Shown here one piece after another: positions 34,848 through 58,959 of a stretch of DNA of 62,854 bases. Every line of letters starts with the position of its first letter. Within the stretch, counting starts at the first letter, position 1. A program made the position numbers and the translations under genes. The stretch covers positions 1 to 62,854 of the forward strand of contig CAYPPQ010000002.1 of the NCBI GenBank assembly GCA_964412635.1, written 5' to 3'. A model generated the notes under the pieces. That model saw nothing but the letters and a program-made list of their open reading frames with translations, had not been told where the DNA came from and searched no databases. The DNA is from an uncultured Planctomycetia bacterium (lineage in GTDB: Bacteria > Planctomycetota > UBA8108 > UBA1146).

Positions 34848-34859
34848 GGTGGTCGCCCC

Positions 34860-36389: not shown

Positions 36390-36564
36390 GCCCAGAATCT
36401 ACCTCCCAAGGGGGTCCCAGGCCACGATGCTCCACGGGTTGACGCAGACTTCCTGAGACCGCACCTTTGGAACTGCTGTCAGGATGCGATCTGCGGAGCG
36501 TATCGTTCGACGGGAGATCCGCAACTTTTGCGGAGTTTTCAACGATTCAGGGGGGCTGAAGAGC

Positions 36565-42440: not shown

Positions 42441-44494
42441 GGGCAGGTCGGATGATCATCGCAAGGGAAGAATGCCCCTGCCGGAATTATCCCGCAATCG
42501 GGGAATGGTGGCGGAGGTGCGGTGCCTCCCGCATAGAGATAGTAAAGCAGTGAAATACCATCACTGATGTCGAGAGAACCGTCGGCATTCGCATCCGCCG
42601 CTTCCAGGCAACCGGGGATCGAGTTCTCGCCGAACACTCTACCGATCAGTAACACGGCATCGGCGAGGCGGATCCCCTGCACCCCATCGGCATCTCCACG
42701 GATGAATCGGATCTCGCACTCATCGAGTTCACCGTTTCCGTTCACATCATTGCTGGGCATCTCCAGGTCACAGGAATCCGGAATGTGGTTACTGTTGCAA
42801 TCCAATGCGTTCCCGGCGAGGAAATCACAGGAGTCTGGAATCATATTTTCGTTGCAATCCGGATCGCAGGAATCGATGACGGCATTGTCGTCGCAATCTT
42901 CCTCGCTGCCTTCGAGAAGCTCGCAGCTATCGAGGAGGCCATCGGCATCACAATCGAGGGTTCCGTCCGATAGGATCTCACAGACATCGGGAATCAGGTT
43001 CTGGTTGCAGTCGACCTGGCACAGGTCCGGGATGCCGTTTCCATCACAATCCATAACCTGCCCCGCTGCAACTGCGCAGGAATCGGGAATGCCATCCCCG
43101 TCGCAATCGGCAACGATTCCATCCCGTGTCGTACAGAGGTCCGGGATTCCATCTCCGTCACAATCCTCGGAGACTCCCATCCCGATTCCACAACCGTCCG
43201 GAATCCCATCGAGATCACAATCTGAATCACTTCCTGCGGCGATGGAGCAGGCGTCTGAAACACCGTCCTGATCACAATCAGTATCTCCGTAGATCTTCAC
43301 GACGATATTGCCCCCCGCCGGAGCGTTGGTAGATGCGAAGGGCGCGCCGATCACGACGACACCTCGATGCACGGCCACGGAAGAACCGAGGAAGGAACTG
43401 GGATTCCCGACCTGGACATCGAGCAGTTGCCAGCCACCTTGCCAGCGGAAGATCGACGCCGAACCGGAGGGAAACGCCTCTGCTCCCGTATCGGTCGGAG
43501 CTCCGATCGACAGGAGATTGCCGTCCAGATCGAGGATGGCACCGAAGGCGCAGCCGCTGGCGCCGGAAGGGGGCAGAAGGTACGGCCCCAGGACCCACAC
43601 CTGGCCCTCGCGATGGTAATGAACCACCGCGCCGGCAGCACTTCCACCGAGGTCAGAATAGGGAGCTCCCAGCAGGATGTGGTCCTCCGACACTGCCACC
43701 GAGGTACCGAGACGATCCCCCGGGTTCGCTGCCCCTGAACCGATGGAGAACTCCTCGATCCAGCTGCCAGCGGTGCCCGTGAAGTAGTATGCAGCGCCGG
43801 TGTCGGGCCCGAGATGATCACGACCTGGGGCCCCCACGATCAGTCGATGAGGGCCATCCAGATCGAGAGCAGTTCCGAACTGATCACCGGGGACACGGTC
43901 AGAGGCGAGCAATCTGTCATGGAACTCCCACACTCCCGCGGAATCGAGTTTCCAGATCGTCACGCAACCGACCGGTCCTGCTCCGGTTTCAAAATTAGGT
44001 GATCCCACCACGAGGGTGTCACCTGCAAGTTTCACACTGCTTCCAAAGCCATCAGCGACCTGAGCTCCCGGATCAAAAAGTACCTGTACAGTCGTCCAGG
44101 TCTGCTGAACACGCTCGAAGATCACCACCGAGCCGTTTCCAGTGGCACCCGCTGCCATTCGATTTCCATCTACCGCCAGAGATGCCCCGAACTCGGAGGT
44201 CACTTCTCCTGTCAACAGCTGTTCCAGTTGATATCCGCTGCTGGACTTACGAAAGACCCTGACACTACCGCTGAGCATGCCTCCACTATCGTCTCCGATG
44301 GCACCGGCAAAGAGCCGCCCGCCCGAGATGGCGACCGATCTTCCAAGATAGTCACCACCGCTGACGCCAAATATCTCCACGGTCCCGGTGGCACACTGCC
44401 CCGGCAGTATTCCCGACAACAGGATGAGGAGAATCGGTACCGTGAGCCCCTGGTACAGAATTGAAAGAGATGAATTGTGGGGCGCAGCACGCAT
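42437..44494 (-). CDS. Secreted protein: 7 FG-GAP-like repeats (beta-propeller), about 11 Cys/Asp Ca-binding repeats, dockerin-like (FIRGD) module
   Basis: Signal ending SGILPGQC; seven (F/L)Gxx(V/L)x(I/V/L) blades; repeats of D-C-(D/N)-x-(D/N)-x4-D-x-C; FIRGDADG and AADANADGSLDISDG. Likely start 44494. Confidence 0.82.
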   Translation of the reverse strand: MRAAPHNSSLSILYQGLTVPILLILLSGILPGQCATGTVEIFGVSGGDYLGRSVAISGGRLFAGAIGDDSGGMLSGSVRVFRKSSSGYQLEQLLTGEVTSEFGASLAVDGNRMAAGATGNGSVVIFERVQQTWTTVQVLFDPGAQVADGFGSSVKLAGDTLVVGSPNFETGAGPVGCVTIWKLDSAGVWEFHDRLLASDRVPGDQFGTALDLDGPHRLIVGAPGRDHLGPDTGAAYYFTGTAGSWIEEFSIGSGAANPGDRLGTSVAVSEDHILLGAPYSDLGGSAAGAVVHYHREGQVWVLGPYLLPPSGASGCAFGAILDLDGNLLSIGAPTDTGAEAFPSGSASIFRWQGGWQLLDVQVGNPSSFLGSSVAVHRGVVVIGAPFASTNAPAGGNIVVKIYGDTDCDQDGVSDACSIAAGSDSDCDLDGIPDGCGIGMGVSEDCDGDGIPDLCTTRDGIVADCDGDGIPDSCAVAAGQVMDCDGNGIPDLCQVDCNQNLIPDVCEILSDGTLDCDADGLLDSCELLEGSEEDCDDNAVIDSCDPDCNENMIPDSCDFLAGNALDCNSNHIPDSCDLEMPSNDVNGNGELDECEIRFIRGDADGVQGIRLADAVLLIGRVFGENSIPGCLEAADANADGSLDISDGISLLYYLYAGGTAPPPPFPDCGIIPAGAFFPCDDHPTCP
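42720..43290 (-). repeat. About 11 thrombospondin-type-3-like DCxxxGIPDxC peptide repeats
   Basis: DCDQDGVSDAC, DCDLDGIPDGC, DCDGDGIPDLC, DCDGDGIPDSC, DCDGNGIPDLC, DCNQNLIPDVC, DCDADGLLDSC, DCDDNAVIDSC, DCNENMIPDSC, DCNSNHIPDSC, DVNGNGELDEC. Boundaries are approximate. Confidence 0.88.
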
Positions 44495-44643
44495 CGACAA
44501 GACTTTCGGAACGAGGGATGGAAACTCCCGGGGGAGGGAGTGGTCGATCTCCATCCATCCTTCCGTCCGCTACGATTCTGTCAATCCACCGCGAGGCCGC
44601 TCGATAGCGTTGGACAGGATTGCTAGTTTGGAATCGTTTTTAC

Positions 44644-46038
44644 CTAGAGAGGATCACCGAGTCGACGAGGCCAGTGATCATCAGGTACTTCCGGTTGCTC
44701 TTCACTTGCTGGACGGATGTGATCGAGGAGGCCTTCCTCGACCTTGTCGTACTGAATCTGACCATCGATCACGGCCCACCGAACGTGTGTCATGTATGAA
44801 AGGATATCCCCATCCAAGATGATGAAATCGGCATCTTTTCCCACTTCGATGGAACCGACTCGATCGGACACACCGAGGATCCTCGCGGGCTCGATGGTGA
44901 TCGCTTCGACAGCCACATCTTCTGCAAGACCACCCCTCACCGCAAAGGCAGCTTCAAGTGGTAAGTGAGCGAGGTCCCTGCCAGCCAATCCCCACATGGC
45001 GATCCCGGTCGACCCGGGGAGTATCACGATGGGAACGCCGTACTCGTGCAGGATTCGAGCGTTTTCGATACTGGTGCCACTGTCGGAACCGCGACTCTCA
45101 TCGCGATCTCTTCGTGCCCTCGGAGTCAGCACGACCGATGCTCCACAGCGTGCAATCACTCCGGGATCGATCCACGCCTCTTCTGCCCCCTCGATGACGA
45201 GGCTGAATCCGAATCGGCGAGCGAGCGTGCACATCTCCCGGATATCAAAGATCTTGCTGAGTCGAACGAGAGCGACCGTCTCTCCCAGGATGAGGCCCTT
45301 CGCTACCGAATAGACCCCGCGAATCCACTTCTCGTCCGGTGCCTTCGCATCCGGATTCTCCTTCTTCTCGACCTGGTGGCGCTCTAGCTCCCGCAGGTGT
45401 TCCTGAACTCGTTCCAGTGCCCTGCGAAACTCACGTTTCTTCAGTGGATTCCTGCTGCTGTAGGAGATCGATGTGAAACTCTTCCGGCGTAGCGTCAGGT
45501 CGGTTACCGATCCTCGGATCAGTTTGGTGACGCGACTGCCATTCCAGGTCGATGTGATTCCTGCGGCGAGACCCATGGCGGTTCCCAGCGAGAAGGGATC
45601 CTGCGTCTTTTCCGCTTCTCCCGATCCCACCAAACCACTCGAACGAAAAGCAACGAGACCAGGGTAGACATGGTACCCCTCGGCATCGATTCTCTCGGCG
45701 GACTCAGGTATCTGTACATCGACTCCAAAGGAGGAGATCTTTCCGTCCTTGCACAGGACCGTGCCCGCGACGATCACCGGTCCGGTGACGGTATGGATGG
45801 TTGCGCCTTCGATGGCGAGGTACTCACCACCCGGTTCCTCCGGTTCGATCTCCTCTTTCGGGGGCTCGGGAGCTGGCGGAGGAGGAGGAGGCCTCCTGCC
45901 ACGACGTCTGCGCTGCGGTGGATCCTGTGCTTCGGCAACGCCGGCGACCTGGAGTGAGAGCCGGGCACCGAACGGGATGTCCGTGACCAGGAACAGGACT
46001 GCCAGCACCAGTAGAGATGATTTCAGTTTCAGGTTCAT
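44644..46038 (-). CDS. Secreted amidohydrolase-fold protein 8 (metal ligands absent)
   Basis: Signal peptide; IEGATIHTVTG; PGLVAFRSS in place of HxH; C-terminal ITIEPARILGVSDRVGSIEVGKDADFII. Start 46038 is an ATGA overlap. Confidence 0.85.
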   Translation of the reverse strand: MNLKLKSSLLVLAVLFLVTDIPFGARLSLQVAGVAEAQDPPQRRRRGRRPPPPPPAPEPPKEEIEPEEPGGEYLAIEGATIHTVTGPVIVAGTVLCKDGKISSFGVDVQIPESAERIDAEGYHVYPGLVAFRSSGLVGSGEAEKTQDPFSLGTAMGLAAGITSTWNGSRVTKLIRGSVTDLTLRRKSFTSISYSSRNPLKKREFRRALERVQEHLRELERHQVEKKENPDAKAPDEKWIRGVYSVAKGLILGETVALVRLSKIFDIREMCTLARRFGFSLVIEGAEEAWIDPGVIARCGASVVLTPRARRDRDESRGSDSGTSIENARILHEYGVPIVILPGSTGIAMWGLAGRDLAHLPLEAAFAVRGGLAEDVAVEAITIEPARILGVSDRVGSIEVGKDADFIILDGDILSYMTHVRWAVIDGQIQYDKVEEGLLDHIRPASEEQPEVPDDHWPRRLGDPL

Positions 46039-47372
46039 CGGCGATCCTCTCGATCCCATACGACCTCACCGGCGATGATCGTCTTCATCACCCTGGCACC
46101 CGGTTGTAGCGGATCCGCATCGAAGAGTACGAAGTGAGCCTGCTTGCCCGGCTCCACCGTACCCATCTCCTTCTCGAGACCGAGGAATCTGGCCGGTTCC
46201 GCTGTCACCGACGCGATGGCCTTCTCTGCGCTGAGCCCGTACCTCACCATCTCGGCGAGTTTCCCGGGGATCTCCTGCATCCCTGCGAGGTTGTCACTCC
46301 TCGGCAGGGTTATCAATCTGCAACCACTTCGAGAGAATGCCACTGGCATGTGGATTCTCGTATACGTGTCCGGAAGTGCACTCAGGCCCGAAGGCATCAA
46401 GAGAGTGGCTTCTCGTTCCGACAGGAGTTCGATCACTTCGTGAAATACTCCTCGACTGGTCGACAGCACGAAGCGATCGAGTGGATCCCGATCCTTCAAC
46501 TCTTCCACCCTGGAAAGTGCAGAGTCGAGATGCAGGATCAGTCCCGGCGTCGACGCCTCGAAGACGATCGGCAATGCATCGCTCTTCTCCTCGATGATCT
46601 TGACCAGTTCGAGGACTGCAGGGTTCATGGGAGGAGCAGTGAACTCCTTCTTCTCTGGCTTCTTGTCGTCCTTCTCTGGATTCTCCGCAGCAGCGTCGTC
46701 AGGCTTCTTCTTGGCCTCTTCCTCCGCTTTTTTCTTCGCTTCTTCCTGCTCCTTGTCCCACTTCTCCCGCGCTTTCTTGACCTTTTCGATCTCGCCGCGG
46801 GCGGCACCAAAAGCCTTATCGACGGAGGAGTAGATCCCGGAAGAACTTCTCCCTGAAAGTGGCAGGTACGCAGCCTTTTTCAGGACCCGGTCGCTGCTCT
46901 CCTGTGCGGTATGAACCACCACGGCATGCCCCGGGAATCCGGATCCACTGGGAATCAGCGTGGTGGCGACGAATCCGCACTCCAGGAAATCCTCCCAGGG
47001 CATCTCCGATTCGCGTAACTGGCGAAGTGGTGACCAGTCGCAGTGAGTACCATTGCGGGAGATGGGAGCGAGTCCGTAGGTCGACTTGGCGAGGATCATG
47101 CCGGCCATCAGGGTCTGGTTCCCCGCATCGATGACATCGGCGTTACTGGGATATTCAAGCTGGTTGCCGACCAGAGTGATCTTCCCCTCCTCGACGATCA
47201 CCTCACCTGGCTCGAGGATCTCACCGGTACCGGTGATGACCCGCCCAGCCCGAATCACGATGACTCGATCTTCGTCCGCCTGAACCGGTGGCGTTGATCC
47301 GGGTAGAGTCGCCGCCGAGACGAGAAGCAACAGTGCCAGGCAGTAGCAACGCTTCAGGGTGAAGTGGATCAT
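46035..47372 (-). CDS. Secreted amidohydrolase-fold protein 7 (metal ligands absent)
   Basis: Signal ending PPVQA; IRAGRVITGTG; AGMILAKST in place of HxH; VTAEPARFLG...GTVEPGKQAHFV. Start 47372 is a TGATG overlap. Confidence 0.85.
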   Translation of the reverse strand: MIHFTLKRCYCLALLLLVSAATLPGSTPPVQADEDRVIVIRAGRVITGTGEILEPGEVIVEEGKITLVGNQLEYPSNADVIDAGNQTLMAGMILAKSTYGLAPISRNGTHCDWSPLRQLRESEMPWEDFLECGFVATTLIPSGSGFPGHAVVVHTAQESSDRVLKKAAYLPLSGRSSSGIYSSVDKAFGAARGEIEKVKKAREKWDKEQEEAKKKAEEEAKKKPDDAAAENPEKDDKKPEKKEFTAPPMNPAVLELVKIIEEKSDALPIVFEASTPGLILHLDSALSRVEELKDRDPLDRFVLSTSRGVFHEVIELLSEREATLLMPSGLSALPDTYTRIHMPVAFSRSGCRLITLPRSDNLAGMQEIPGKLAEMVRYGLSAEKAIASVTAEPARFLGLEKEMGTVEPGKQAHFVLFDADPLQPGARVMKTIIAGEVVWDREDRR

Positions 47373-48622
47373 CAAAAGACTCTCTTCCCGCTGGCATCGT
47401 AGGTCACCTTGCCGTCGATCACCGTCAGTTCACAGGCGGATCGAGGATCGATGGGATCCCCGGTCCACAGGCAGAAATCTGCGTCGAGACCGACCGTGAT
47501 ACTTCCAAGACGATGATCCATCATCAGAGCCTCTGCAGGGATTCTGGTCACTCCCTTGAGGGCCTCGTACGGCGTCCAGCCGTAGTAGCAAGCCATCGAA
47601 GCCTGGTAGAACAGTTCCTCCTGGGGAATCACCGGCGAATCGGTATTGATCCCCAGTTGCCTGACCCCACCTTGCCACCAGCGTGCGGCGTTACCCATGA
47701 TGCGACGCTGAGTGCGATCGAAGTGGATCTGGCGCGGCCCATTGATGGTGTAGATCGATTCGTTCTCGTTGACGAGGGGAGCGACCTTCCACGCGTCGAA
47801 GGTGGAGTGATCGAGCACCGTTCGAATCCCGAAATCGCCTGCGACCATCTTCACCGTGGTCATCAGGACCTGATACATCTGGGTGTGAACCGAAGCGACC
47901 GTCTCCCTGCGAAAGAGTGGTCTGAACTCCTCCCAGTGAAGATCCTTGGGCGGTTCTACTTCGATCTCTCCCGCTTCCCATGCGGTGCGGGCGAGATGGT
48001 AATCCTGTGCCTTTTGCAGCGTCTGACGGGTGTTGAAATTCATGAAGGAACGACCGACCCCGTAGAAGTACCGTTCCGGATTACCTGCCTGGGCGATCTT
48101 CAGCGAGCCGGGGGCCTTCAACACCGCTTCCTCGACGGTACCGGTTCCAGCTGTCTTCAGGATCGTACCGAAGCCTGACATGTTGTTTCCACTACCTGGA
48201 ATCGTCAGAACCGTCGTCACTCCGCCGGCCCGTGCCCGCTCCATCTCGATCCCATCGGGAACGATCGACTCGAGAGTGCGCAGTCCAGGATTGGTCAGGT
48301 ACACGTAATCGTGAAGATCGGGACTCGATCCACCGGTGTGGTTGTGGCACTCCACCATTCCGGGGACCAGCCACAGATCGGGTTTCGAGATCACGGTGGC
48401 CCCGTCGGGAATCACCACATCCTTGTGAGATCCCAGCGCAGTGATCTTGCCATCGACGACGATGACCACTGCGTTGTTGATCACGCGGTCCTCGGCATCC
48501 ATCGTGACCACCTTGCCGACCCGGAACGCCATCGTCTCCGCAGCGACAGCCTCCCCCAGCGGCAGGAAGCCGGTCGCACCACAGAGCAATACGGTGAGTA
48601 AGTACATCGTGCAATTCCTCAT
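47372..48622 (-). CDS. Secreted amidohydrolase 6, the only paralogue with a full binuclear metal-site motif set
   Basis: PGMVECHNH (HxH), SLKIAQAGNP (Lys), SVHTQ (His), LDHST (His), INTDSP (Asp); GSITVGLDADF. ATGA overlap with the upstream gene. Confidence 0.9.
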   Translation of the reverse strand: MRNCTMYLLTVLLCGATGFLPLGEAVAAETMAFRVGKVVTMDAEDRVINNAVVIVVDGKITALGSHKDVVIPDGATVISKPDLWLVPGMVECHNHTGGSSPDLHDYVYLTNPGLRTLESIVPDGIEMERARAGGVTTVLTIPGSGNNMSGFGTILKTAGTGTVEEAVLKAPGSLKIAQAGNPERYFYGVGRSFMNFNTRQTLQKAQDYHLARTAWEAGEIEVEPPKDLHWEEFRPLFRRETVASVHTQMYQVLMTTVKMVAGDFGIRTVLDHSTFDAWKVAPLVNENESIYTINGPRQIHFDRTQRRIMGNAARWWQGGVRQLGINTDSPVIPQEELFYQASMACYYGWTPYEALKGVTRIPAEALMMDHRLGSITVGLDADFCLWTGDPIDPRSACELTVIDGKVTYDASGKRVF

Positions 48623-51345
48623 CGAGGAACCTCCTCTCCACCGATGAATACCCTCTTGAGACGACTTCCTGTCTCCATCGGGTGTCCATCCCAGATCAAC
48701 AGATCCGCATCCAGGCCCTTCTCGATGGAGCCGACGGTGTCGGAACTCCCCAGCGCCTCCGCTGCGCCGGTGGTCAGGGCTCGAAGTGCCTGATCAGCAC
48801 CCATACCCCGTTCCACCGCCTCCAGTGCTTTCCTCGGCAAGATCCTGGCACCGTCCGCCGCCACACTCTGGAAGGCGACATTGATCCCGCTTCTACTGAG
48901 AAAGGAACCGGGCGCAAATTCTTCATCCTTCAGGGAGTTGGTCGCCGCCGGCGGCAGGATCACCGACACCGATTTCTCTGCGAGCATCTCCCTGTAATAG
49001 AACATGTCCGCTCCGAGGCGCACCGTCAGTGGAATCTTGTTCTCGGCAAAGAAATCGATCACCGCTGCCGCAACGTCGAGGCCACTCGGTGTCACCACGA
49101 CGGGAATCTCCTTCTGGAGAACCGCTCTCACAGGTTCCAGTGCGAGATTCACCCGTGGAGGATTGGGACGGCCATCCTCGTCGCGCTTCTTGCGACGCTC
49201 GACCTTGAAAGCCTTCGCCTCCTTGCTGGTCCGGGTGCCGACCACATCAGCATTGAACTGCAAGATGGAGATGGTGCCGGTGAGAGAGTCTTCTCCCGTC
49301 AACTCGGCATTGATCCTCGGCTTCTCGGGGAGCACCCCATCTTCCACCTCGATGGATCCCTCGATGGTGGTTCCCGAGAGGGTTCCCACGACCCGCACCG
49401 GGATCGGAGGCGCAGGGTCGATGACCCTCCCCTCGAAATTGTCGCCTTGCAAGGTGATGGAGAGTTTCACCTCCTCCGGTTCCGGTATCGGACCACCACT
49501 GATGGACAGTTCCCAGATTCCGGTGAGAGGATCGGGGCCGCTCTCTTCGACGACCGTTTCCTCCACCTCCTCCTTCTTCTCGATCTTCTCCCCCGCAGCT
49601 TTCTTTTTCTTCCATTCCGCGAGGTCTTTCTCGTACTTGGTCCACGAATCGAGGTACTTCTTACCCTGTCCCAGCAACATCTTCACTCGATCGAGTGCAT
49701 CGTCTGGATGACCACCAACCTCGAGAAGCAGGGCCGTGACATCGCTACCGATCCTGTCGGAGCGAGTGCGCCCGGCGGTCTTCACCATCACTCCGGTGCC
49801 CGCCCCACGCTGCAATCGCTTGGGGGTCAGCAACTGGGAGGTCACGCCCGCCCTGGCGACACGATGTTCCGGCGCATCGGCGGCTCCGATGATCCGGCCA
49901 AGTCGATCTCCGGTTCCCGCCGAGGCCTGGTCTCCGCGCAACCCGAGGTGTCCGTAACTGTCGATGAAACCGGGAACGATGAATCCATCAGGACCGGCGT
50001 CCACCACCCTCGAATGGGGTGGATGGGGAACTCGATGACCGACCGCAGCGATCTTGCCATCTTCCATCAGCACCTCACCATCCTCGATCCGCTGATCTGG
50101 CGAGATCCAGATGGTTCCACCACGGATCACCGTGGCAGTTTCCTGGCGAGGAACCCATGCACGAAGACCATCGGCATAGACCGCCATCGGCTGGGCAGAG
50201 AGATTCCATGGTCCACGATTCCAGATGACGAGATCTGCGTCGCAACCCTCTTTCAGTTCTCCTACACGGTCTGCCACCCCGAGGATCCGTGCCGGATGCG
50301 AGGTGACCAGTGGAATCGAGTCGTTTGGATCCTCCATGTGGGCGGCGACTTCCATCAGTGCCCAGCGCAGTTGCCCGAGATCATTGCCTGGTGGTGCCAA
50401 GGCCACCATCGCATCCGCTCCCAGCAGAGGCCATCTGTCGAGCCCTTCAACCGGCTCATCGTTGAAACCGACATCTCCCTTGGGAGCAGCAACTCGAAGC
50501 ACCAGAGGAATCCCGGCGGCCGTCACAGCCGACGCAACCTCCTGGATCTCCTCACCTCCAACGATGTATCCGGGACGATCCTTGCCACGCATGAAGGAGA
50601 TCGCAGCCAGAATCTCGGCGGCCCGGGAAGCGACCATCCGCAACGGCAGGTCGGAAGCCCAGGCGGTGGCGAGGATCTCGTGCTCTGCTGGATCCTTCTG
50701 CGCCGCTCCGATCGCCTCACTCAGTGCCAGCAATCTTCCGATGCGACTGCGCGGCCTCTGAGGAGTGGGAGCGTTGATGGCTACATCACTGGATGCGGGG
50801 AAGGGAATCTCGAGCAGCGGCCTGGGATTGTCGACCGCATCGGTAATCGACAGGGACAGATCGGCCGTGCGACTCAGGATTCGCTGATGTGCGCTACCGA
50901 CCAGCTTGACCACGGCACCCTGTCCACTGAGAAGCCGATGCTCTCCAGGACTGATGTGTGCGCTGGTCACACCCGTTTCCAGCTGTGGGCGATAGTCCCC
51001 GTAGCGATCGAAACCATCCGCTGCCTGGAACGCAGCAGAGACATTTTCCGGTGCGGTATGGGGAGCGACGATGGAACTGGAAGCGGCAACCCAGCCCGGT
51101 GTCACGTAGGCATCCGGCCAGTGAATCAGCGGCAGATCGAACAGCATCTCGTCTTCGGATAACTGTTGCCACGGTCCGCTACGCACCACCTTGCCGTCGC
51201 GAACCGCCACCGCTCCATCGACGATGACATCGGTTCCAGTGTGGACGGTGCCCGCGCGGATCAGGAACCCATCGGCTGCCTGAGCCGATTGCACGGGCTG
51301 AACCAGGAGCAGTAAGATCCCCGTCAGGATCACAGGTAAACGCAT
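48619..51345 (-). CDS. Secreted amidohydrolase-fold protein 5: two tandem degenerate domains, with a beta-rich insert in the second
   Basis: Signal MRLPVILTGILLLLVQPVQSAQA at ATG 51345; the track's 51618 start runs into the upstream gene. Domain a has PGWVAASSS; domain b has PGFIDSYGH. Both end in GxLKEGxDAD/GSIEKGLDAD. Confidence 0.85.
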   Translation of the reverse strand: MRLPVILTGILLLLVQPVQSAQAADGFLIRAGTVHTGTDVIVDGAVAVRDGKVVRSGPWQQLSEDEMLFDLPLIHWPDAYVTPGWVAASSSIVAPHTAPENVSAAFQAADGFDRYGDYRPQLETGVTSAHISPGEHRLLSGQGAVVKLVGSAHQRILSRTADLSLSITDAVDNPRPLLEIPFPASSDVAINAPTPQRPRSRIGRLLALSEAIGAAQKDPAEHEILATAWASDLPLRMVASRAAEILAAISFMRGKDRPGYIVGGEEIQEVASAVTAAGIPLVLRVAAPKGDVGFNDEPVEGLDRWPLLGADAMVALAPPGNDLGQLRWALMEVAAHMEDPNDSIPLVTSHPARILGVADRVGELKEGCDADLVIWNRGPWNLSAQPMAVYADGLRAWVPRQETATVIRGGTIWISPDQRIEDGEVLMEDGKIAAVGHRVPHPPHSRVVDAGPDGFIVPGFIDSYGHLGLRGDQASAGTGDRLGRIIGAADAPEHRVARAGVTSQLLTPKRLQRGAGTGVMVKTAGRTRSDRIGSDVTALLLEVGGHPDDALDRVKMLLGQGKKYLDSWTKYEKDLAEWKKKKAAGEKIEKKEEVEETVVEESGPDPLTGIWELSISGGPIPEPEEVKLSITLQGDNFEGRVIDPAPPIPVRVVGTLSGTTIEGSIEVEDGVLPEKPRINAELTGEDSLTGTISILQFNADVVGTRTSKEAKAFKVERRKKRDEDGRPNPPRVNLALEPVRAVLQKEIPVVVTPSGLDVAAAVIDFFAENKIPLTVRLGADMFYYREMLAEKSVSVILPPAATNSLKDEEFAPGSFLSRSGINVAFQSVAADGARILPRKALEAVERGMGADQALRALTTGAAEALGSSDTVGSIEKGLDADLLIWDGHPMETGSRLKRVFIGGEEVPR

Positions 51346-51346
51346 C

Positions 51347-52939
51347 CTAGCGACCTCCCCCCGCCGGCTGATCCGTGGAACTGCCATCCGGTTCCTTCGC
51401 TGGCGGATCCTCGTCGGACTGATCCTTCTTTTCCGAACTCTCCTGGATCGGTTCCCCACTATCGCCCGATTTCTCTTCATCGCCGGGGACGGTTTCACCC
51501 TCTCCAGCACCCTCTCCCTCGGAGTCAGCTCCTTCTTCGGCTGCTGCCTCACCATCGAGAGGAGTCGGCGGCGTCGGCTCTTCTTCCACCTCGGGGAACA
51601 ACTTCTCGAGGCGTGCATCTTTTTCGCGGTCGTAGGCGAGGATTCCCTCGACGTACACCTTTTGCACCCACGAGTTGAAGTCGAGAGGATTGCCGGTCCA
51701 CATCACCAGGTTGGCGATCTTTCCCGACTCGATGGAACCGTATTGCTTGGCGATCCCGCACACCTCTGCGGCACCCAGGGTGATCTTGCGCAGTGCCTTT
51801 TGCGGATCGAGACCGGCGCGGACCAGGCGAGCCGCCTGGTAACCGAGGAATCTCTCCGGCATGGCATTGGAACGAGCCGGCTGAATCGCAAATTTCACCC
51901 CGGCCTTCATGTAGACCGCTGGAATGAAGGTCTCCTTCACGTCACTGGTGATGGGATCACGCTTGCGGAAGATCATCTCGGCACCGAGAACCACCGGCAA
52001 GTCCGCCTCGGCGATTTCTTCCACGGCAAGGTGAGAATCCCCTCCCATGACGAGGACTGCCCGTCCCTGCCACTGACGATCCTCGATCAGAGCCACAGCA
52101 GGAGCCACATCGGTGGCAGCTCCGCAGTAAATCCACGCTCCCAGCCTACCGTCTTCGAGATAGGAGAGATGCCGGTGTGCATCGTCCAGATCCTCGTCCT
52201 CGATCAGTTCCATCCCCTTGCTCCGCGCCTCTTCAGGAGGCAGTGGATCGACATCGTCTTCCTTCTCTGCGTGCATCTCGTACTTTGTCTCGGCGAGATC
52301 TTGTCGCCAGCGATCGAGTTCGTGGAACACCTCGCGCAACTCTGCAAGCTGGCGCTGTCTCTCGTATCCCGTCCTGGGAGTCGTTGACATTTTCAGCGCC
52401 ATACCAGGCATACTCGTCATCTCATCCGGGGAAAGACCGATGGGGTGGACGACTCGACTGACCCCACCGACCACGCAGTTATTGCCCTGCATGACATGGA
52501 TGGTAGTGACCCCATTGCGCAGAGAATCCTCGAAGAAGAAACGAGAGGGATCGATGGCGTCATAGACATCGACGAAGGGGGCTGAGGGAAGATTTTCGTT
52601 GGGTACATCTAGCCCGTCAGCACTGTGTGGATCGACAAACCCCGGTGCCAGGGTCATGCCGGTGCAATCGACCTCCATCGCATCGTAGGGAATCGCCATT
52701 GCCCCATCGCCGACGGCGGTGATGATTCCATTCTCCACCAGAACCACGCCACCCTCGATGGTCGGTCCCGAGACGGTGATCACCGTACCTCCGGTGAATG
52801 CGACCTTCGAGCCCCTTTCCGTCGCCTCGGCGGCGGACAGGGTGACGAAAATGGTGACCAAAACGGCAATCACCAGTGGGAGTGTCTTCATGTTATTCAG
52901 CTTCATCGCTTGCTTGCCTCCAGGGATCCTCATGATCAT
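51347..52939 (-). CDS. Secreted amidohydrolase-fold protein 4 (partial ligands) with a long acidic disordered C-tail
   Basis: Signal ending SAAEA; PGFVDPHSA keeps one His; ALKMS keeps the Lys; later His/His/Asp are replaced; GSIESGKIANLV. Start is 52939 (ATGA overlap) or 52906. Confidence 0.85.
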   Translation of the reverse strand: MIMRIPGGKQAMKLNNMKTLPLVIAVLVTIFVTLSAAEATERGSKVAFTGGTVITVSGPTIEGGVVLVENGIITAVGDGAMAIPYDAMEVDCTGMTLAPGFVDPHSADGLDVPNENLPSAPFVDVYDAIDPSRFFFEDSLRNGVTTIHVMQGNNCVVGGVSRVVHPIGLSPDEMTSMPGMALKMSTTPRTGYERQRQLAELREVFHELDRWRQDLAETKYEMHAEKEDDVDPLPPEEARSKGMELIEDEDLDDAHRHLSYLEDGRLGAWIYCGAATDVAPAVALIEDRQWQGRAVLVMGGDSHLAVEEIAEADLPVVLGAEMIFRKRDPITSDVKETFIPAVYMKAGVKFAIQPARSNAMPERFLGYQAARLVRAGLDPQKALRKITLGAAEVCGIAKQYGSIESGKIANLVMWTGNPLDFNSWVQKVYVEGILAYDREKDARLEKLFPEVEEEPTPPTPLDGEAAAEEGADSEGEGAGEGETVPGDEEKSGDSGEPIQESSEKKDQSDEDPPAKEPDGSSTDQPAGGGR

Positions 52940-54483
52940 TTCAATCCTCCACCTGCATTGAAGGAAATCACTCCTTCATGGAGAACTTTTTCAACTCTTG
53001 AGAGGGACGAGAACGGAGTTCCGCTCCAGACAACCAGGTCCGCCTTCTTTCCTGCTTCAATCGTTCCCACCATCGTCTCGATACCGAGTAAACGAGCAGG
53101 ATTCTGTGTCACCAGTTGGAGTGCTTGGCGCGGATCAACCCCGTGGCGGATGGCGAGCATCACCTGGCGGGCGAGACCCTCCTCACCCCTCAGATCCTGA
53201 GCACTCAGCGACACCTCTACCTCGGATTCGATCAGATCCCGGAGGGTACTGAGTCGGGAATCACGACTCTCGTTGGTACCTGCCAGGATGCCGCTGGGGC
53301 TGTCGTAAACGGGACCGAACACCACATCGACATCACGACTGGCGAGCAGGTCGACTCGTTTCCAGGCCTCGACCGGATCTTCCAGTATGAAGTTCAGACC
53401 GAACTCTCCGCTGAGCCGGAACGCGGTCTCGATGTCGGGAGCGGTTCGTGCCTGGATGCGCAGAGGGATCTCCCCGGCGAGCACCTGCGACAGAACCCGC
53501 GACGCTTCAGGGCTCGACGTGTCTGCACCGGTGGGGTCGATTCCATTGGCTCGCAGGAATGCGTCGTGAAACGCCTTCCGGAAGACCCACGCCACTCCCA
53601 TGCGGCTGTCGGGTCTGCGGGTGTAGACACTCACGATGTTGCGGAACGGACTTCGATTTCGCGATCCGTAGCGATAGGCATCGCTGCCCAGCACGCCCTT
53701 GACCGCGCCCGCTCCGATGTATCGGGATGCGAGTGGTCCCCCCGTCTTCAACATCGATCCTCGACTGCCGATCACCGCCGACGAATCGGGGCTGACATAG
53801 ACGGTGGTCACACCTTCACGCAGCAGCCGATCGAAATCGTCCGATCCCTGATCGAGGGCATCGAGAACTTCGAACTGCGGGACCACCTCACTCGATTGCT
53901 CGTTGACAACTCCACTGGGCGCTGGCACTCCGGCAGCTCGATTTCCGCTGACCAGGCTCTCGATCATCTCCTCGGTCGGATCATGCGGATGGGGATCGTG
54001 GTCTGGCCAGCCACAGTAGAGACACATCTCTTCCTCGACGTGCAAGGTCAGTGCTGGACAGACGGTTCCACAGGGGCACACGTCACCACCGTGATAGTGT
54101 TTCTCCAGCCCCATCGCCTTGAGAATCTGCAGTCGAGGACTCTCTCCCGGAAAATCGATGGCATCCGCCACATCGATGCGGGCGTTGGCATCGATCATTC
54201 CCGGCGTGATGTCGGAAACCCGGAGAATCGTGGCACCTTCAGGGGCGGTCGCCCCCGCCTGCACGCTCTGGATGGTTCCATCCTTGATGGTGATCAGTGC
54301 TTGCTCGACGACGGAGCCATCACCGATATGGGCCCGCTCCGCCAGGATGACCACATCACGGATCAACTCTTCTTCCGATGCGACGGCGCTCCCCACCAGA
54401 CAGAAGAGAGCCAGCATCGGCAGGAGCAACTGCCAGCTGCGATTGTTCAGCAAGGATCTCCGCCTCGGGACTGTACTGTTCAT
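52936..54483 (-). CDS. Secreted amidohydrolase-fold protein 3 (ligands absent) with a Cys/His-rich insert
   Basis: Signal with RRRSLL, ending SAVA; PGMIDANAR; GVTTVYVSP; AVKGVLG; VTQNPARLLG...GTIEAGKKADLV. Confidence 0.87.
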   Translation of the reverse strand: MNSTVPRRRSLLNNRSWQLLLPMLALFCLVGSAVASEEELIRDVVILAERAHIGDGSVVEQALITIKDGTIQSVQAGATAPEGATILRVSDITPGMIDANARIDVADAIDFPGESPRLQILKAMGLEKHYHGGDVCPCGTVCPALTLHVEEEMCLYCGWPDHDPHPHDPTEEMIESLVSGNRAAGVPAPSGVVNEQSSEVVPQFEVLDALDQGSDDFDRLLREGVTTVYVSPDSSAVIGSRGSMLKTGGPLASRYIGAGAVKGVLGSDAYRYGSRNRSPFRNIVSVYTRRPDSRMGVAWVFRKAFHDAFLRANGIDPTGADTSSPEASRVLSQVLAGEIPLRIQARTAPDIETAFRLSGEFGLNFILEDPVEAWKRVDLLASRDVDVVFGPVYDSPSGILAGTNESRDSRLSTLRDLIESEVEVSLSAQDLRGEEGLARQVMLAIRHGVDPRQALQLVTQNPARLLGIETMVGTIEAGKKADLVVWSGTPFSSLSRVEKVLHEGVISFNAGGGLK

Positions 54484-55688
54484 CGGTTTCCTCCCAGTTC
54501 GCTGATGGCTTCCGTGGAACGGATGGGAAGGCGCTCGCCTGCCACCCAGACCTTGAGAACCCGTGCTCCCGGATCGAGGGGATCGGTGCTGAAGAGCACC
54601 AGGTCTGCCCTCGCTCCCGGAGCGATGACACCGGTGTTACTCGCCTCGACAGCCCGCGCGGGATTGCTGAAGAGCGCTCTCCGCGCTGCGGCCGGGTCGA
54701 GTCCAGCCGCCACGGCGATGGCTGCGCTGCGTCTGAGGTGATCGGAATCGTGGCGCGGCAACCCTCCACGAAATGCCAGTTCGACCCCCACCTCGGCGGC
54801 TCGAACTGCAGTATCTACCGCTGCGGAATCAGCCCCTTCCTGGAAGGGGCCCACCACCATCAACGCATCGGTGCGAGCGGCGAGACGATCGATGGGAGAT
54901 CGTGCATCTCCGTCGTGGATCAGTACCGGAAGCGTTCCCCAGTTACCTTCTGATACACCGTTGGCTGCTACCGGTAACTGTCCCCAACCGGCATCGAGGG
55001 CCTGCCTCAAGTCGATCGCTTCGGGACAGTAGAGGAACCCGGGGTTGCTGCGGATGGTGTGGCTCGTCGTGCTCGTATCGTAGTGCAGCGCAGTTTTCCA
55101 CCGGGCGACCATCGACACCCGGGAGGTGGGCTCACGGGAGGAATCGAGAACCGAACCGGAGAGGGCGAAGAAGGGCAGATCAGTGCCGAGCGATACCGCT
55201 GCGGCATTCGACTGACACAGGAAGGTCGCCGTCTTGCCGTTGACCAGCCCGCTGGGAGCAGCGGCGATGGTGGTGTAGAGGATTCCCTCCCTGGCCGCCT
55301 GGCCCAGGTGGGGATCGGTCGGATCGAACCCCTCACTGGCAGACAATCCCCAGTCCCACAGCTTGGTCCCCGCCTGCAACGATCCGCGACCTCCAAGGGA
55401 GCCGAACAGATCGTGTAATCCGGGAGCGAGAATCGCTCCAGCGGGTGCTTGCACGGTGCGGAACTCATCACCATCCACCTGATCGGAGGGGATCACCCCC
55501 TCGATGTTTCCGTCGGCACCGACCACCACTGCCATTCCGGGACAGATGCTACCGTCCCCTGAAACCACCCCGACATCGGTGATGACGAGAGACTTCAGCG
55601 GCGCTGAAGAACCATGACCGGTTTGCCAGAAAGCCGTCGCCAACAGCGACGAGAAGAGCAACAGAATCACCGTCGAAAGATGCCGCAT
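54480..55688 (-). CDS. Secreted amidohydrolase-fold protein 2 (ligands absent)
   Basis: Signal MRHLSTVILLLFSSLLATA; PGLHDLFGS; LFSNPARAV...GVIAPGARADLV. Start 55688 is a TGATG overlap. Confidence 0.83.
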   Translation of the reverse strand: MRHLSTVILLLFSSLLATAFWQTGHGSSAPLKSLVITDVGVVSGDGSICPGMAVVVGADGNIEGVIPSDQVDGDEFRTVQAPAGAILAPGLHDLFGSLGGRGSLQAGTKLWDWGLSASEGFDPTDPHLGQAAREGILYTTIAAAPSGLVNGKTATFLCQSNAAAVSLGTDLPFFALSGSVLDSSREPTSRVSMVARWKTALHYDTSTTSHTIRSNPGFLYCPEAIDLRQALDAGWGQLPVAANGVSEGNWGTLPVLIHDGDARSPIDRLAARTDALMVVGPFQEGADSAAVDTAVRAAEVGVELAFRGGLPRHDSDHLRRSAAIAVAAGLDPAAARRALFSNPARAVEASNTGVIAPGARADLVLFSTDPLDPGARVLKVWVAGERLPIRSTEAISELGGNR

Positions 55689-57076
55689 CAGAAACTCCCT
55701 TCCCGGGTACCGGCAGGTCGCTGCCACAGCACCTTGCCGTTGATGATCACCCGTTCCGGACGAGCTGCCGGATCTACCGCCGGGTTACCGCTCCACAGCA
55801 CGACCTCGTTGCTGCCCCGGCGCAGCCAGCCTCCAGCGCGCCCCTGACTTCCCTGGCGGATGCCCAGCTGCAGCGGATTGGTGTCGGGGTCTGCCCCCGC
55901 TCTCTGCTGAAAGACTCTCCACAGGGAGGTGCTCTCGCCGCCACTACCCAGCGACCACGGGATCTCCGCCTCGTCGAGTCGGCTCAGCAGCGAGGGATCG
56001 TGACGAGGAGTGGCTCCTCGCTGGAACTGTCCGCTCCCTCCATCGAGGAGCAACTCGACATCTTCCAGTTCCTGGAGCTCTTCCAGCAGCAGGTGAGCCT
56101 CGTCCGCGCCGTGGATGATCGCCTTCAGCTGAAATTCCTCGATGAGGTCGATGGCATTCTGTATATCCTCGCTCCTGCGAGCGGTGATCAGCACCGGCAG
56201 ATCGTGATCGAGAGCCTTGAGAACCAGTTCACCAGCGGGATTTCTTCCCGGACGACCCGGCTTCTCGGGCCCCTTCTCCTCTTCAGCGTCCCCGTCCTTC
56301 TCGGACTCGTCCGCCTTCTTGTCATCCCCCTCTTCTCCCTCTTTCTCCTTCTTCTCCGCCGCTTCTTTCAGAGCTTCCAGATACTCCTCGAGATCTTCCG
56401 AGTAATCATCGGACTGATCGCGAAGATCTCGCGCCGAGATGAATTCCTTGCGCAGGCTCTCGTAGGTGCGAATCCTCTGGATGGAGCCTCCGACGCTGAG
56501 ATCGATGTGAAGCGCCACATCGTCATCGCTCGGCTTTCCGAAGCCACCATTGTCGCGCGCCTGTAGCGACACGGAGGTGACGCGACCGACGATTCCGGCG
56601 GATCCCTTCGGTACCAGGTGGACCCGGGTGATCCCCGAGGCGAGTACCTGCAGGATCTGTTTCGAATCGAAGCGGTCAAATCCATCCCAGGCCCTGTGGA
56701 TCGCTCCCCCCTTCGAGGTCGGCGTCAGGGTCAGTGACGAGGAGAGATCGGTCAGCCCTGCGGTGGCGTAGAGTCCACCCACCTTGGGCTTCCGAGCCAT
56801 CATGTTGCCCTCTGCGTCACTTCCGATCGCCTGGATGCGGCCCTGGCGCAAGACGATATTGATCCCCTCGGCGACGGTGCCGTCTGGCCGAGGCACGTGG
56901 ACCCCTTCCAGAACTACATCCCTGGCAAAGAACCCCTGTGCCAGCAGCGACGTGGAAGAACCACACAGCAGCATTAGCAGCAGACAGACCCTGGAGAGAT
57001 GGCATCCAGCGCGGACAGGAGATCCCCTGCCGACGCGCAACGGGAGAGAACAGTTGAGCTTCATCTTCGTCATCAT
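55688..57076 (-). CDS. Secreted amidohydrolase-fold protein 1 (ligands absent; C-terminal motif eroded)
   Basis: Signal ending STSLLA; AGLTDLSSS; SGITRVHLVP; LITARRSEDI; IHGADEAH. Likely start 57076 after an AGAGGG RBS. Confidence 0.8.
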   Translation of the reverse strand: MMTKMKLNCSLPLRVGRGSPVRAGCHLSRVCLLLMLLCGSSTSLLAQGFFARDVVLEGVHVPRPDGTVAEGINIVLRQGRIQAIGSDAEGNMMARKPKVGGLYATAGLTDLSSSLTLTPTSKGGAIHRAWDGFDRFDSKQILQVLASGITRVHLVPKGSAGIVGRVTSVSLQARDNGGFGKPSDDDVALHIDLSVGGSIQRIRTYESLRKEFISARDLRDQSDDYSEDLEEYLEALKEAAEKKEKEGEEGDDKKADESEKDGDAEEEKGPEKPGRPGRNPAGELVLKALDHDLPVLITARRSEDIQNAIDLIEEFQLKAIIHGADEAHLLLEELQELEDVELLLDGGSGQFQRGATPRHDPSLLSRLDEAEIPWSLGSGGESTSLWRVFQQRAGADPDTNPLQLGIRQGSQGRAGGWLRRGSNEVVLWSGNPAVDPAARPERVIINGKVLWQRPAGTREGSF

Positions 57077-57234: not shown

Positions 57235-57467
57235 CTGCCAACAAAAAATAGGTCCCCATCTCCGAAAAATCCGGAAACTTCCCCAGGCACCTTGGATACT
57301 TCCCCAATGCAATCCGGCAGTTCTGACGTCAGGGTATCCTCTCCAATGGTTCCCTGAAAGTACTGTCTGGGCATCGATCCACTCGCATCCAGCACCCCGA
57401 GAAGGCAAGATCTGGTTTGATGCCAACAGGCGGGATCTCGATCCACCCGCCGGGAGAGGACCATACC

Positions 57468-58385
57468 GTGAACGATCACCGATCAGCACCGATGCGGGGC
57501 ACCGGCTCCAGTGAAGAATTCCGTACCAAGGTGGGTCTCGCAGAGATGCTCCGTGGTGGTGTCATCATGGATGTCACCAGCGCAGAAGAGGCCAGCATCG
57601 CACAGTCCGCAGGGGCTGTGGCGGTGATGGCTCTCGAGAGGGTCCCTTCCGACATCCGCAGAGACGGTGGCGTCGCCCGCATGTCTCCCGTCGACAAGGT
57701 GCGAGAGATCCAGCAAACAGTCACCATCCCGGTGATGGCCAAGGCGCGCATCGGACACTTCGTCGAAGGTGAAATCTTGCAGGCGCTGGAGGTCGACTTC
57801 ATCGACGAATCGGAAGTTCTGACCCCCGCCGATCACGCCCATCACATCGAGAAGAGTCGCTTCAAGGTTCCGTTCGTGTGCGGTGCTACCAACCTCGGAG
57901 AAGCACTGCGCCGCATCGGTGAGGGTGCAGCGATGCTTCGAACCAAGGGAGAAGCGGGTACCGGAGATGTTACGGAAGCGGTCCGCCACCTTCGATTGAT
58001 CCATCAGCAGATCCGCAATCTCACGCTGGTTCCTTCGGAAGAGTGGATGAGCATCGCGAAGGAACTTGGAGCTCCCTACGATCTGGTGTGCCAGGTCGCA
58101 CGAGATGGCCGATTGCCGGTTCCCAACTTCGCTGCAGGAGGAGTGGCAACACCCGCCGACGCAGCGCTGGTGATGCGCCTCGGTGCGGAAGCGGTATTCG
58201 TCGGATCCGGTATCTTCAAGTCGGAAGATCCGCTGAAAACAGCGCACGCCATCGTCCATGCCACCGCCCACCATGACGACGCACAGCAACTGGTCGAGGC
58301 TTCGAGTGGCCTGGGCGAAGCGATGCCTGGCATCGATGCAGCCAAGCTCCCGGATGAAGAGCGACTCCAGGTTCGAGGCTGGTAA
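57468..58385 (+). CDS. pdxS: Pyridoxal 5'-phosphate synthase lyase subunit PdxS
   Basis: [73 protein letters not shown]. Likely GTG start 57468 after GGGAGAGG. Confidence 0.97.
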
Positions 58386-58386
58386 A

Positions 58387-58959
58387 TTGTCTGTAAATTC
58401 GGTGGCAGTTCTGGCACTGCAGGGATCGGTCGAACCACATATGCGAGCGCTGCTCGATGCGGGAGCGAACCCTGTCGAACTGCGCCGACCGGAGCAACTC
58501 GACGGGATCTCCCATCTGGTCATCCCGGGCGGTGAGAGCACCACTCTCAGGCACCTTCTCGACCTCCACGATCTCTCGGAGAGGATCCCGCAACAGGTGG
58601 CCACGGGAGAACTTGCCCTGCTGGGAACCTGTGCCGGGGCGATCCTGATGGGCAGTCACTCCGAGGATGCACCGCAGCGCTGGAATCTCATCGACATCGA
58701 GGTGCAGCGCAACGGCTATGGCCGTCAGCTCGACTCCTTCATCGGTCCCGTCGAGTGGGTCTCCGGACCGACCGCCGGAGATGCCGAGGGGGTATTCATC
58801 CGTGCTCCCCGGATGCTCGATCCCTCCGACTCGGTGGAGGTGCTCGCTCGCAGGGGCTCGGAGGTGGTGGCGGTTCGTCAGGAGCGATGCGTGGCCTGCA
58901 CCTTCCACCCCGAATTGACCGCAGATAGGCGATTACACCGCTGGTTTCTGGCTCTATGA
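58387..58959 (+). CDS. pdxT: Pyridoxal 5'-phosphate synthase glutaminase subunit PdxT
   Basis: VLALQGS, PGGESTT, GTCAG (Cys), RNGYGRQLDSF, FIRAP, FHPEL. TTG start 2 nt after the pdxS stop. Confidence 0.95.
   Translation: MSVNSVAVLALQGSVEPHMRALLDAGANPVELRRPEQLDGISHLVIPGGESTTLRHLLDLHDLSERIPQQVATGELALLGTCAGAILMGSHSEDAPQRWNLIDIEVQRNGYGRQLDSFIGPVEWVSGPTAGDAEGVFIRAPRMLDPSDSVEVLARRGSEVVAVRQERCVACTFHPELTADRRLHRWFLAL

Follow-up and report, generated by a model that had tools for sequence, protein, structure and literature searches.

The eukaryotic 20S proteasome, like other rings differentiated into paralogs, derives from a homo-oligomeric ancestor; each of its positions may have a distinct paralog, with catalytic residues retained at a minority of them. 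Within the amidohydrolase superfamily, whose fold combines a (beta/alpha)8 barrel with a composite beta-sandwich domain, enzymes of the Cc2672/Sgx9260 type are binuclear zinc amidohydrolases with a carboxylated lysine. The same superfamily includes pseudo-dihydroorotase (pDHO, or PyrC'), an inactive protein that is required as a structural partner in the dodecamer of Pseudomonas aspartate transcarbamoylase (PMC7053772). Here we describe an operon of eight genes (g1 to g8) that encodes nine amidohydrolase domains, among which that of g6 retains a complete set of catalytic metal ligands. The operon lies in a 62,854-nt stretch of DNA (the window; positions 1 to 62,854 of contig CAYPPQ010000002.1, GenBank assembly GCA_964412635.1) from an uncultured Planctomycetia bacterium. 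We propose that it encodes an exported (periplasmic), obligate hetero-oligomeric hydrolase that evolved from a homo-oligomeric ancestor. We assign this reading, in which assembly is deduced from the genes, a probability of roughly 0.6.

In known pairings of pseudoenzymes with active paralogs there is usually a single pseudoenzyme. The operon combines eight inactive families and one active family in a fixed order across two classes of Planctomycetota, and is unusually extreme in this respect. A full-text search of the literature returned nothing on this operon, and the main text and part of the tables of the Planctopirus essential-gene paper contain no relevant mention.

One complete metal site among nine related domains

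The nine domains are encoded by eight abutting minus-strand open reading frames (ORFs) that run from 57076 to 44644, with two domains (5a and 5b) in g5. All seven gene junctions consist of a 1- or 4-nt overlap of stop and start codons or of a 1-nt gap, the pattern of translationally coupled genes. The N-termini of all eight translations have a basic and then a hydrophobic stretch, as is typical of export signals, and those of g5 and g6 appear as low-confidence N-terminal helices in AlphaFold2 (AF2) models.

We gathered 80 species loci from genome assemblies and built an orthologue alignment for each gene. In profile-profile comparisons (hhalign), all eight of the other domain families match the g6 family with 99.9-100% probability over 355-396 columns, including those of g2 (100%) and g1 (99.93% over 385 columns). 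Six proteins, with seven of the nine domains, exceed the cutoffs of the Pfam models Amidohydro_1/3, mostly via the C-terminal part of the fold; g2 is borderline (24.9 and 26.7 bits vs cutoffs of 25 and 29.7) and g1 has no Pfam match. The top match in phmmer searches of the PDB is 3OOQ for g6 (8e-38), g4 (1.5e-30, full length), g5 (1.6e-24) and g8 (1.3e-16). No solved hetero-complex was found in PDB sequence searches with these four proteins, just 3OOQ and distant amidohydrolases. The AF2 model of g6 (predicted local distance difference test score, pLDDT, 87.5; predicted template modelling score, pTM, 0.87) has a template modelling (TM) score of 0.85 to 3OOQ, which Foldseek places first at an E value of 8e-33, with the next entry at 1e-16. 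For the g5 model (pLDDT 89.3, listed for 5a; pTM 0.77) 3OOQ is also far ahead of other matches, so that every domain tested matches 3OOQ best, both by sequence and by fold. In the matrix of profile scores the domain families are about equally close to the 3OOQ family (20-31% identity) and to their sister families, which suggests that they radiated from an ancestor resembling 3OOQ. On these sequence comparisons, all nine domains are paralogs of the 3OOQ-type subfamily of the amidohydrolase superfamily.

The operon proteins come near the cutoff of no NCBIfam equivalog. Assignment of g6 as an Xaa-Pro dipeptidase / Lys-Arg carboxypeptidase equivalog was considered and rejected (NF051886, the best NCBIfam match, 69 bits vs a cutoff of 500), as was assignment to the imidazolonepropionase HutI, the name used in JGI annotation (TIGR01224; g6 34.8 and g5 70.6 bits vs a cutoff of 298). 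Given that g6 falls below the NCBIfam cutoffs, no function should be deduced from the label "imidazolonepropionase-like". This label and "amidohydrolase family protein" are the only ones that public databases give to the operon proteins, and both conceal the lost catalytic residues described below.

We identified in the g6 translation the motifs VECHNHT, SLKIAQ, SVHTQ, LDHS and INTDS. They carry the binuclear-metal ligands H93, H95, K175, H246, H272 and D328, which are in register with the same six ligands of 3OOQ. When g6 orthologues and 3OOQ-family proteins are aligned together, none of the six ligand columns varies. All six are present in 80 of 81 g6 orthologues, and the remaining sequence has gaps at both HxH columns and is probably incomplete. 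By sequence, g6 is a 3OOQ-type binuclear amidohydrolase, and it is presumed to be the catalytic subunit.

An earlier note on this DNA, made from its letters and translations, had claimed that g6 alone of the nine domains has the full ligand set, and had suggested structure-based alignment to characterised binuclear amidohydrolases as a check. The claim holds: g6 agrees with 3OOQ ligand for ligand, the other families were mapped through the g6 profile, and the strings that the note quoted are all present in the translations to which it assigned them. At the position equivalent to HxH, the other domains read DLSSS (g1), DLFGS (g2), DANAR (g3), DPHSA (g4), AASSS (5a), DSYGH (5b), LAKST (g7) and AFRSS (g8), the placement of these strings at the HxH loop being given by the profile-profile alignment to the g6 family. 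These eight domains of the window keep 0-2 of the six canonical ligands. In their families (45-76 sequences each) no member exceeds four of six, and the usual number is again 0-2. Thus, as judged from the alignments, neither the eight domains of this genome nor any of their orthologues examined has a canonical binuclear metal site.

The extent of loss differs among the families. Almost nothing is conserved at the old site in g1, 5a and g8, and the g1 and g8 families usually hold zero canonical ligands (63 of 76 g8 orthologues hold none of the six, and the rest hold one). The most divergent paralog is g1, which has S, S, H, T, G and E in the ligand columns; 38 of the 45 sequences in its family have Cys at the Lys column. 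The sole conserved canonical ligand of 5a is His96, aligned to the second HxH column, and its beta-6 and beta-8 columns are gaps. In 5b it is the second His of HxH (H64 of 5b). An HxH motif is found in 16 of 76 orthologues of 5b, none of which has more than four of the six ligands, and some g2 orthologues also retain it. The beta-6 His (H258) is the one conserved ligand of g2 (46 of 63 sequences). The first His of HxH and the Lys are retained in g4, the ligand columns of which hold H105, A107, K183, Y271 and R293, with H, K, Y and R conserved in the family. In g3 the family-conserved residues at ligand columns are N100, K262 (the Lys), Q344, D/E369 and A/S425. The Lys and the beta-6 His are lost in g7, where R,R is conserved at the HxH columns, H281 in 75 of 76 sequences and D360 in 71 of 76. 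The earlier claim that the later His/His/Asp positions are substituted does not apply uniformly (H281 and D360 of g7 and H258 of g2 are kept).

The HxH loop of g3 carries a Cys/His-rich insert with the pattern CxCG..C..H..CxxCG followed by an HDPHPHD run. It is present in most g3 orthologues and absent in others (e.g., those of loci L027, L037 and L055), and has no Pfam or PDB sequence match. This insert could be a structural metal or disulfide site. Together with it, the strongly conserved polar residues of g3, g4 and g7 at what was the metal site make ligand binding or a non-canonical site possible. Some degenerate domains might accordingly still be enzymes with a remodelled site, the operon then encoding several activities. 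Candidate sites would be a mononuclear or Cys/His metal site in g3, the H/K/Y/R set of g4 and the R/R/H/D set of g7. In line with this, the replacement residues are conserved in g3 (N/K/Q/(D,E)), g4 and g7, the g3 loop has its Cys/His-rich insert, and the HxH retained in some g2 and 5b orthologues would fit as well. However, none of the families corresponds to an established ligand subtype of amidohydrolases, several g3 orthologues do not have the insert, and g1, 5a and g8 are nearly devoid of conserved site residues. We consider this explanation quite unlikely.

Of the 80 species loci, which span Planctomycetia and Phycisphaerae, 55 have g1 to g8 in colinear order, and most of the others contain part of the operon only. 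Relatives of g6 were found in 329 species. Identity between the window and distant loci is ~60% for g6, ~47% for g4 and g8, ~40% for g3 and g5, and ~30% for g1, g2 and g7; g6 and its orthologues across both classes are 56-67% identical. The ratio of nonsynonymous to synonymous substitution rates (dN/dS; Nei-Gojobori, 11 genome pairs) is 0.02-0.33 for every gene. It is lowest or near-lowest for g6 in most pairs and highest for g1 (0.07-0.28) and g2 (0.07-0.33); the range for g8 is 0.02-0.16. The gene-by-gene comparison with orthologues that the earlier note had suggested thus gives purifying selection throughout. Its argument that intact frames speak against decay is strengthened by these ratios and by the gene order conserved in two classes. 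Such values indicate that the degenerate domains are kept by purifying selection and are not decaying.

The window has 58-63% G+C and long spurious antisense ORFs, features that would be expected if the paralogs were decaying duplicates or an annotation artefact of long GC-rich ORFs. That explanation is refuted by the eight intact frames, the same-order orthologues in at least 55 species, dN/dS values far below 1, the near-certain fold-profile matches and the high-confidence AF2 model.

Three of the operon-bearing loci (L009, L042 and L054) are labelled Bacillota, Gemmatimonadota and Vicinamibacteraceae. The Gemmatimonadota-labelled locus is on a 5.5-Mb chromosome (CP070666.1), in which just g4-g8 were recognised. 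These labels reflect either mis-binning or mislabelling, or spread of the operon beyond Planctomycetota.

Operon variants, fusions and the proposed assembly

More distant lineages retain all eight degenerate families and their order, and differ in having one, two or three g6-type genes. There is one in locus L090 (as in the window; nine domains). Loci L084 and L085 have two adjacent g6-type genes (o6 and o7; nine genes, ten domains), and L091 has three (o6, o7 and o8; ten genes, eleven domains). Every g6-type copy in these variant operons has the full HHKHHD ligand set. Thus, the statement that only one of nine domains is complete is limited to this genome and its relatives. As read from these loci, the operon in general combines a constant set of eight degenerate domains with one to three catalytic paralogs. 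The earlier note had interpreted the eight as pseudo-enzyme domains around one active subunit. The loss of the canonical site and the purifying selection bear out the first part of this statement, but the single active subunit is lineage-specific, with two or three elsewhere.

The fusion of 5a to 5b is found in all full-length g5 homologues (~900-1050 aa), down to 29% identity, and the pTM of 0.77 for the g5 model suggests a defined packing of the two barrels. Operon neighbours are fused elsewhere in the combinations g1-g2-g3, g6-g7 and g7-g8. An exhaustive search with g6 of 1.8 billion representative proteins gave 7478 relatives. In the multi-domain proteins among the best 150 of these we scored the ligand columns of each domain, marking the domain as A if its six ligands were complete and otherwise as p (degenerate). 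The resulting architectures are pAp (33 proteins), Ap (24), pA (2), pp (10) and ppp (6), and none of these proteins has two liganded domains. Examples of pAp are P0392, P0403 and P0453 (~1350-1570 aa), and of Ap P0396 and P0399 (~840 aa). Exported single-chain proteins of the pAp/Ap type occur in Planctomycetota and Aminicenantes, with locus L089 among the examples. P0392, which is encoded by a lone gene, is thus a unit complete in itself, with one active domain and two degenerate ones. An attempt to map the pAp/Ap domains one-to-one onto the operon families failed. The active domain of the pAp/Ap proteins is closer to 3OOQ than to g6, and these proteins therefore appear to be independent lineages, not precursors of the operon. 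Thus, simpler single-chain combinations of one active domain with one or two degenerate ones recur, independently, among other exported proteins of this clade. Signal-like N-termini were found in 0 of 120 3OOQ-type singletons, in 54 of 73 multi-domain forms and in most operon proteins. Degenerate partners thus go together with export.

Several domains carry added segments. The beta-rich insert of 5b is predicted by AF2 to have eight strands (pLDDT ~80-88), and has no Pfam or PDB sequence match; the three-domain protein P0453 has a similar G-[TI]-W...beta segment between its domains. Charged K/E/D low-complexity segments are found in g1 (aa ~237-266), g7 (~194-250), g5 (~572-605) and g4 (~224-253). 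Other low-complexity segments are the C-terminal tail of g4 (aa ~440-530) and the Pro/Arg-rich part of g8 (aa ~40-75). Most of these segments flank the helix between barrel strands 4 and 5. They are also present, and often longer, in distant orthologues (e.g., that of L084).

We propose that serial duplication of a 3OOQ-type binuclear-metal amidohydrolase gave rise to all nine domains. Gene 6 would supply the intact HxH/Lys/His/His/Asp catalytic site, and the eight degenerate domains would be obligate non-catalytic subunits that keep the oligomer interfaces of the ancestor and occupy fixed positions beside g6. These subunits would provide architecture, and probably substrate binding or gating as well. 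Capture or gating may involve the conserved polar residues that occupy the former active site in g3, g4 and g7, the disordered K/E-rich loops and the beta domain of 5b. The g6 substrate is most likely a peptide-like amide bond in the periplasm; this is a guess, made because the nearest characterised relatives of g6, matched at low scores, are zinc carboxypeptidases and dipeptidases. We infer the physical assembly, the stoichiometry, the kind of substrate and the part that the degenerate domains play (scaffolding, allostery) from the genes and their homologues.

Shared assembly with g6 is supported indirectly by the stop/start overlaps, by the 5a-5b, neighbour and single-chain pAp/Ap fusions and by the oligomeric state of 3OOQ. 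The 3OOQ entry contains ten chains, and a benchmark limited to complexes of 10-30 chains lists it as dihedral, so that it is apparently a D5 homodecamer. By extension, the operon might encode a fully differentiated, periplasmic pseudo-D5 hetero-decamer with eight fixed non-catalytic positions (g1-g4, 5a, 5b, g7 and g8) and two catalytic slots, taken up by two g6 copies or, where a lineage has g6 paralogs, by g6 together with these. The order of the genes would then correspond to that of the subunits. The five domains up to 5a would form one ring and the five from 5b the other, with the 5a-5b fusion bridging the two. An arrangement of eight fixed positions and two active slots would reconcile the variants with nine (the window and L090), ten (L084 and L085) and eleven (L091) barrel domains and the five-plus-five split, but other stoichiometries fit these numbers as well. 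The three-domain pAp proteins are a misfit for a ten-position particle, and for this reason we consider the decamer rather unlikely. A strict version with ten genes for ten positions was also considered, and is weakened by the 9-, 10- and 11-domain variants. If the decamer exists, it would be a self-compartmentalised hydrolase whose active sites number just one or two. It would also represent a bacterial case of the homomer-to-heteromer differentiation that is otherwise known from the eukaryotic proteasome and CCT.

Several observations weigh against an obligate hetero-oligomer. The support for assembly of the operon products is wholly indirect. A single, fixed decameric stoichiometry is at odds with the totals of nine, ten and eleven domains in different lineages and with the three-domain pAp proteins. 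The polar residues of g3, g4 and g7 and the Cys/His insert of g3 allow that some of the "pseudo" domains may bind ligands or metals. The reference structure, 3OOQ, is an entry of no known function, and no conserved neighbour gene that hints at a substrate was found in the window or in the distant loci.

The products could instead be independent periplasmic proteins that do not assemble, with g6 acting as a stand-alone enzyme and its paralogs as binding or chaperone-like factors for related substrates. Their co-transcription would then reflect no more than a role in one pathway. Each protein has its own signal peptide, several families have specific polar residues at the old site, as might be expected for ligand binding, and the number of g6-type genes differs among lineages. 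A set of separate proteins accounts less well for the gene order fixed across two classes, the overlapping start and stop codons, the universal 5a-5b fusion, the neighbour fusions found elsewhere and the recurrent single-chain pAp/Ap forms, and the homologue 3OOQ is homo-oligomeric. We regard independent proteins as unlikely and favour the hetero-oligomeric hydrolase.

Coordinates and surroundings of the operon

Gene starts (Table 1) were taken as the first in-frame start after a purine-rich, ribosome-binding-like site. The start of g5 is likely ATG 51345 and not 51618. A ribosome-binding-like sequence, GGGGGGAGG (a GGAGG-like site), is found upstream of 51345, and the 999-aa ORF from 51618 is considered over-extended because it runs back into g4. 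The N-terminus of g3 is possibly twin-arginine-like (PRRRSLL). A scan for promoters and terminators gave counts below shuffle expectation and was uninformative.

Table 1. Positions of the operon genes, domains, inserts and g6 ligand codons in the window (aa, amino acids).
Feature	Positions	Strand	Remarks
Gene 1 (g1)	55688..57076	-	462 aa from ATG 57076; signal-like N-terminus; K/E-rich low-complexity loop
Gene 2 (g2)	54480..55688	-	402 aa; start overlaps g1 stop by 1 nt
Gene 3 (g3)	52936..54483	-	515 aa; start overlaps g2 stop by 4 nt
Cys/His-rich insert in g3 HxH loop	53968..54102	-	aa 128-172: KHYHGGDVCPCGTVCPALTLHVEEEMCLYCGW...
Gene 4 (g4)	51347..52939	-	530 aa; acidic low-complexity C-terminal tail
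Gene 5 (g5)	48619..51345	-	908 aa; domains 5a and 5b
Domain 5a of g5	50140..51345	-	Degenerate; signal peptide
Domain 5b of g5	48619..50139	-	Degenerate; fused to 5a
Beta-rich insert in 5b	49225..49521	-	~100 aa; g5 aa 609-707; behind long helix and K/E-rich linker
Gene 6 (g6)	47372..48622	-	416 aa; signal peptide; sole domain with complete ligand set
HxH codons H93-N94-H95 of g6	48338..48346	-	From 3OOQ alignment
K175 codon of g6	48098..48100	-	Bridging (carboxylatable) Lys position; from 3OOQ alignment
H246 / H272 / D328 codons of g6	47885-47887 / 47807-47809 / 47639-47641	-	Span 47639..47887; from 3OOQ alignment
Gene 7 (g7)	46035..47372	-	445 aa; long K/E-rich loop
Gene 8 (g8)	44644..46038	-	464 aa from ATG 46038; Pro/Arg-rich stretch behind signal peptide

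Downstream of g8, after 90 nt, the minus strand also encodes an FG-GAP repeat protein (705 aa; 42437-44554). Its synteny with the operon extends to ~25 loci of the nearer clades but not to Phycisphaerae, and the gene is therefore probably outside the core unit. On the other side, PdxS and PdxT (pyridoxal-phosphate synthase; 57417-58959, plus strand) are divergent from the operon and conserved in the near clade only. An AddB/AddA-type PD-(D/E)XK nuclease and UvrD helicase pair (36484-42440, plus strand) is convergent with the FG-GAP gene. The FG-GAP, UvrD/AddA and PdxS/T neighbours are syntenic in the near clade only, and the distant operon loci have LpxA-like, M28 peptidase or other neighbours. 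Genomic context was rejected as a functional clue, since the neighbours differ between near and distant loci. No conserved genomic context was found for the 3OOQ-type singletons.

Two antisense ORFs on the plus strand, 48682-51162 (826 aa) and 53116-54741 (541 aa), lie opposite g5 and g2/g3. They are most likely GC-rich shadow ORFs, because their translations are of low complexity and unlike real proteins. Elsewhere in the window, a cluster resembling polyunsaturated-fatty-acid and polyketide synthases is encoded at 56-16532 (plus strand). Its first protein has an acyltransferase (AT), tandem acyl carrier proteins (ACPs), a ketoreductase (KR) and a dehydratase (DH), and the next has a ketosynthase (KS) and two FabA-like domains. 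These are followed by genes for a KS-III-like protein, an alpha/beta hydrolase, an AMP-binding enzyme and a 3-beta-hydroxysteroid-dehydrogenase (3-beta-HSD)-like reductase. A molybdopterin oxidoreductase adjoining a fused 4Fe-4S/NrfD membrane subunit is encoded at 32001-36389 (minus strand).

Significance and comparison with known systems

If the products assemble, the operon would provide a tractable bacterial model for the conversion of a homomer to a complex heteromer, and would show which positions stay catalytic. Its product would then be a large and so far uncharacterised periplasmic hydrolase from a phylum known for the uptake and digestion of macromolecules.

The nearest solved relative, 3OOQ, is a structural-genomics entry from Thermotoga maritima MSB8 that shares with the operon domains a helical insertion between strands 4 and 5. 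Members of its family are encoded by single genes of ~385 aa in Thermotogota, Dictyoglomota and Clostridia, whereas the operon encodes nine exported domains. Where 3OOQ is apparently a homo-decamer, eight of the nine paralogous domains of the operon are without the ligands. The nearest characterised relatives of g6 are the Cc2672/Sgx9260 Lys/Arg carboxypeptidases and the cog1228 Xaa-Pro dipeptidases (3MTW, 3N2C and 2QS8). Foldseek TM scores of g6 to structures of the Cc2672 type are ~0.56, vs 0.85 for 3OOQ, and the substrate specificity of these enzymes is not transferable to g6.

Like the degenerate domains of the operon as proposed here, pDHO is a catalytically inactive amidohydrolase-superfamily partner in a hetero-oligomer. 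In that system there is one type of pseudo-subunit, its partner (aspartate transcarbamoylase) is unrelated to it, and the complex is cytoplasmic. The operon, in contrast, would place eight pseudo-paralogs outside the cytoplasm, together with an active paralog that shares their fold. The 20S proteasome differs in fold and chemistry from the particle proposed here, the genes of which lie together in one bacterial operon. By analogy, pDHO is the closest functional precedent within the superfamily and the proteasome the closest architectural one.

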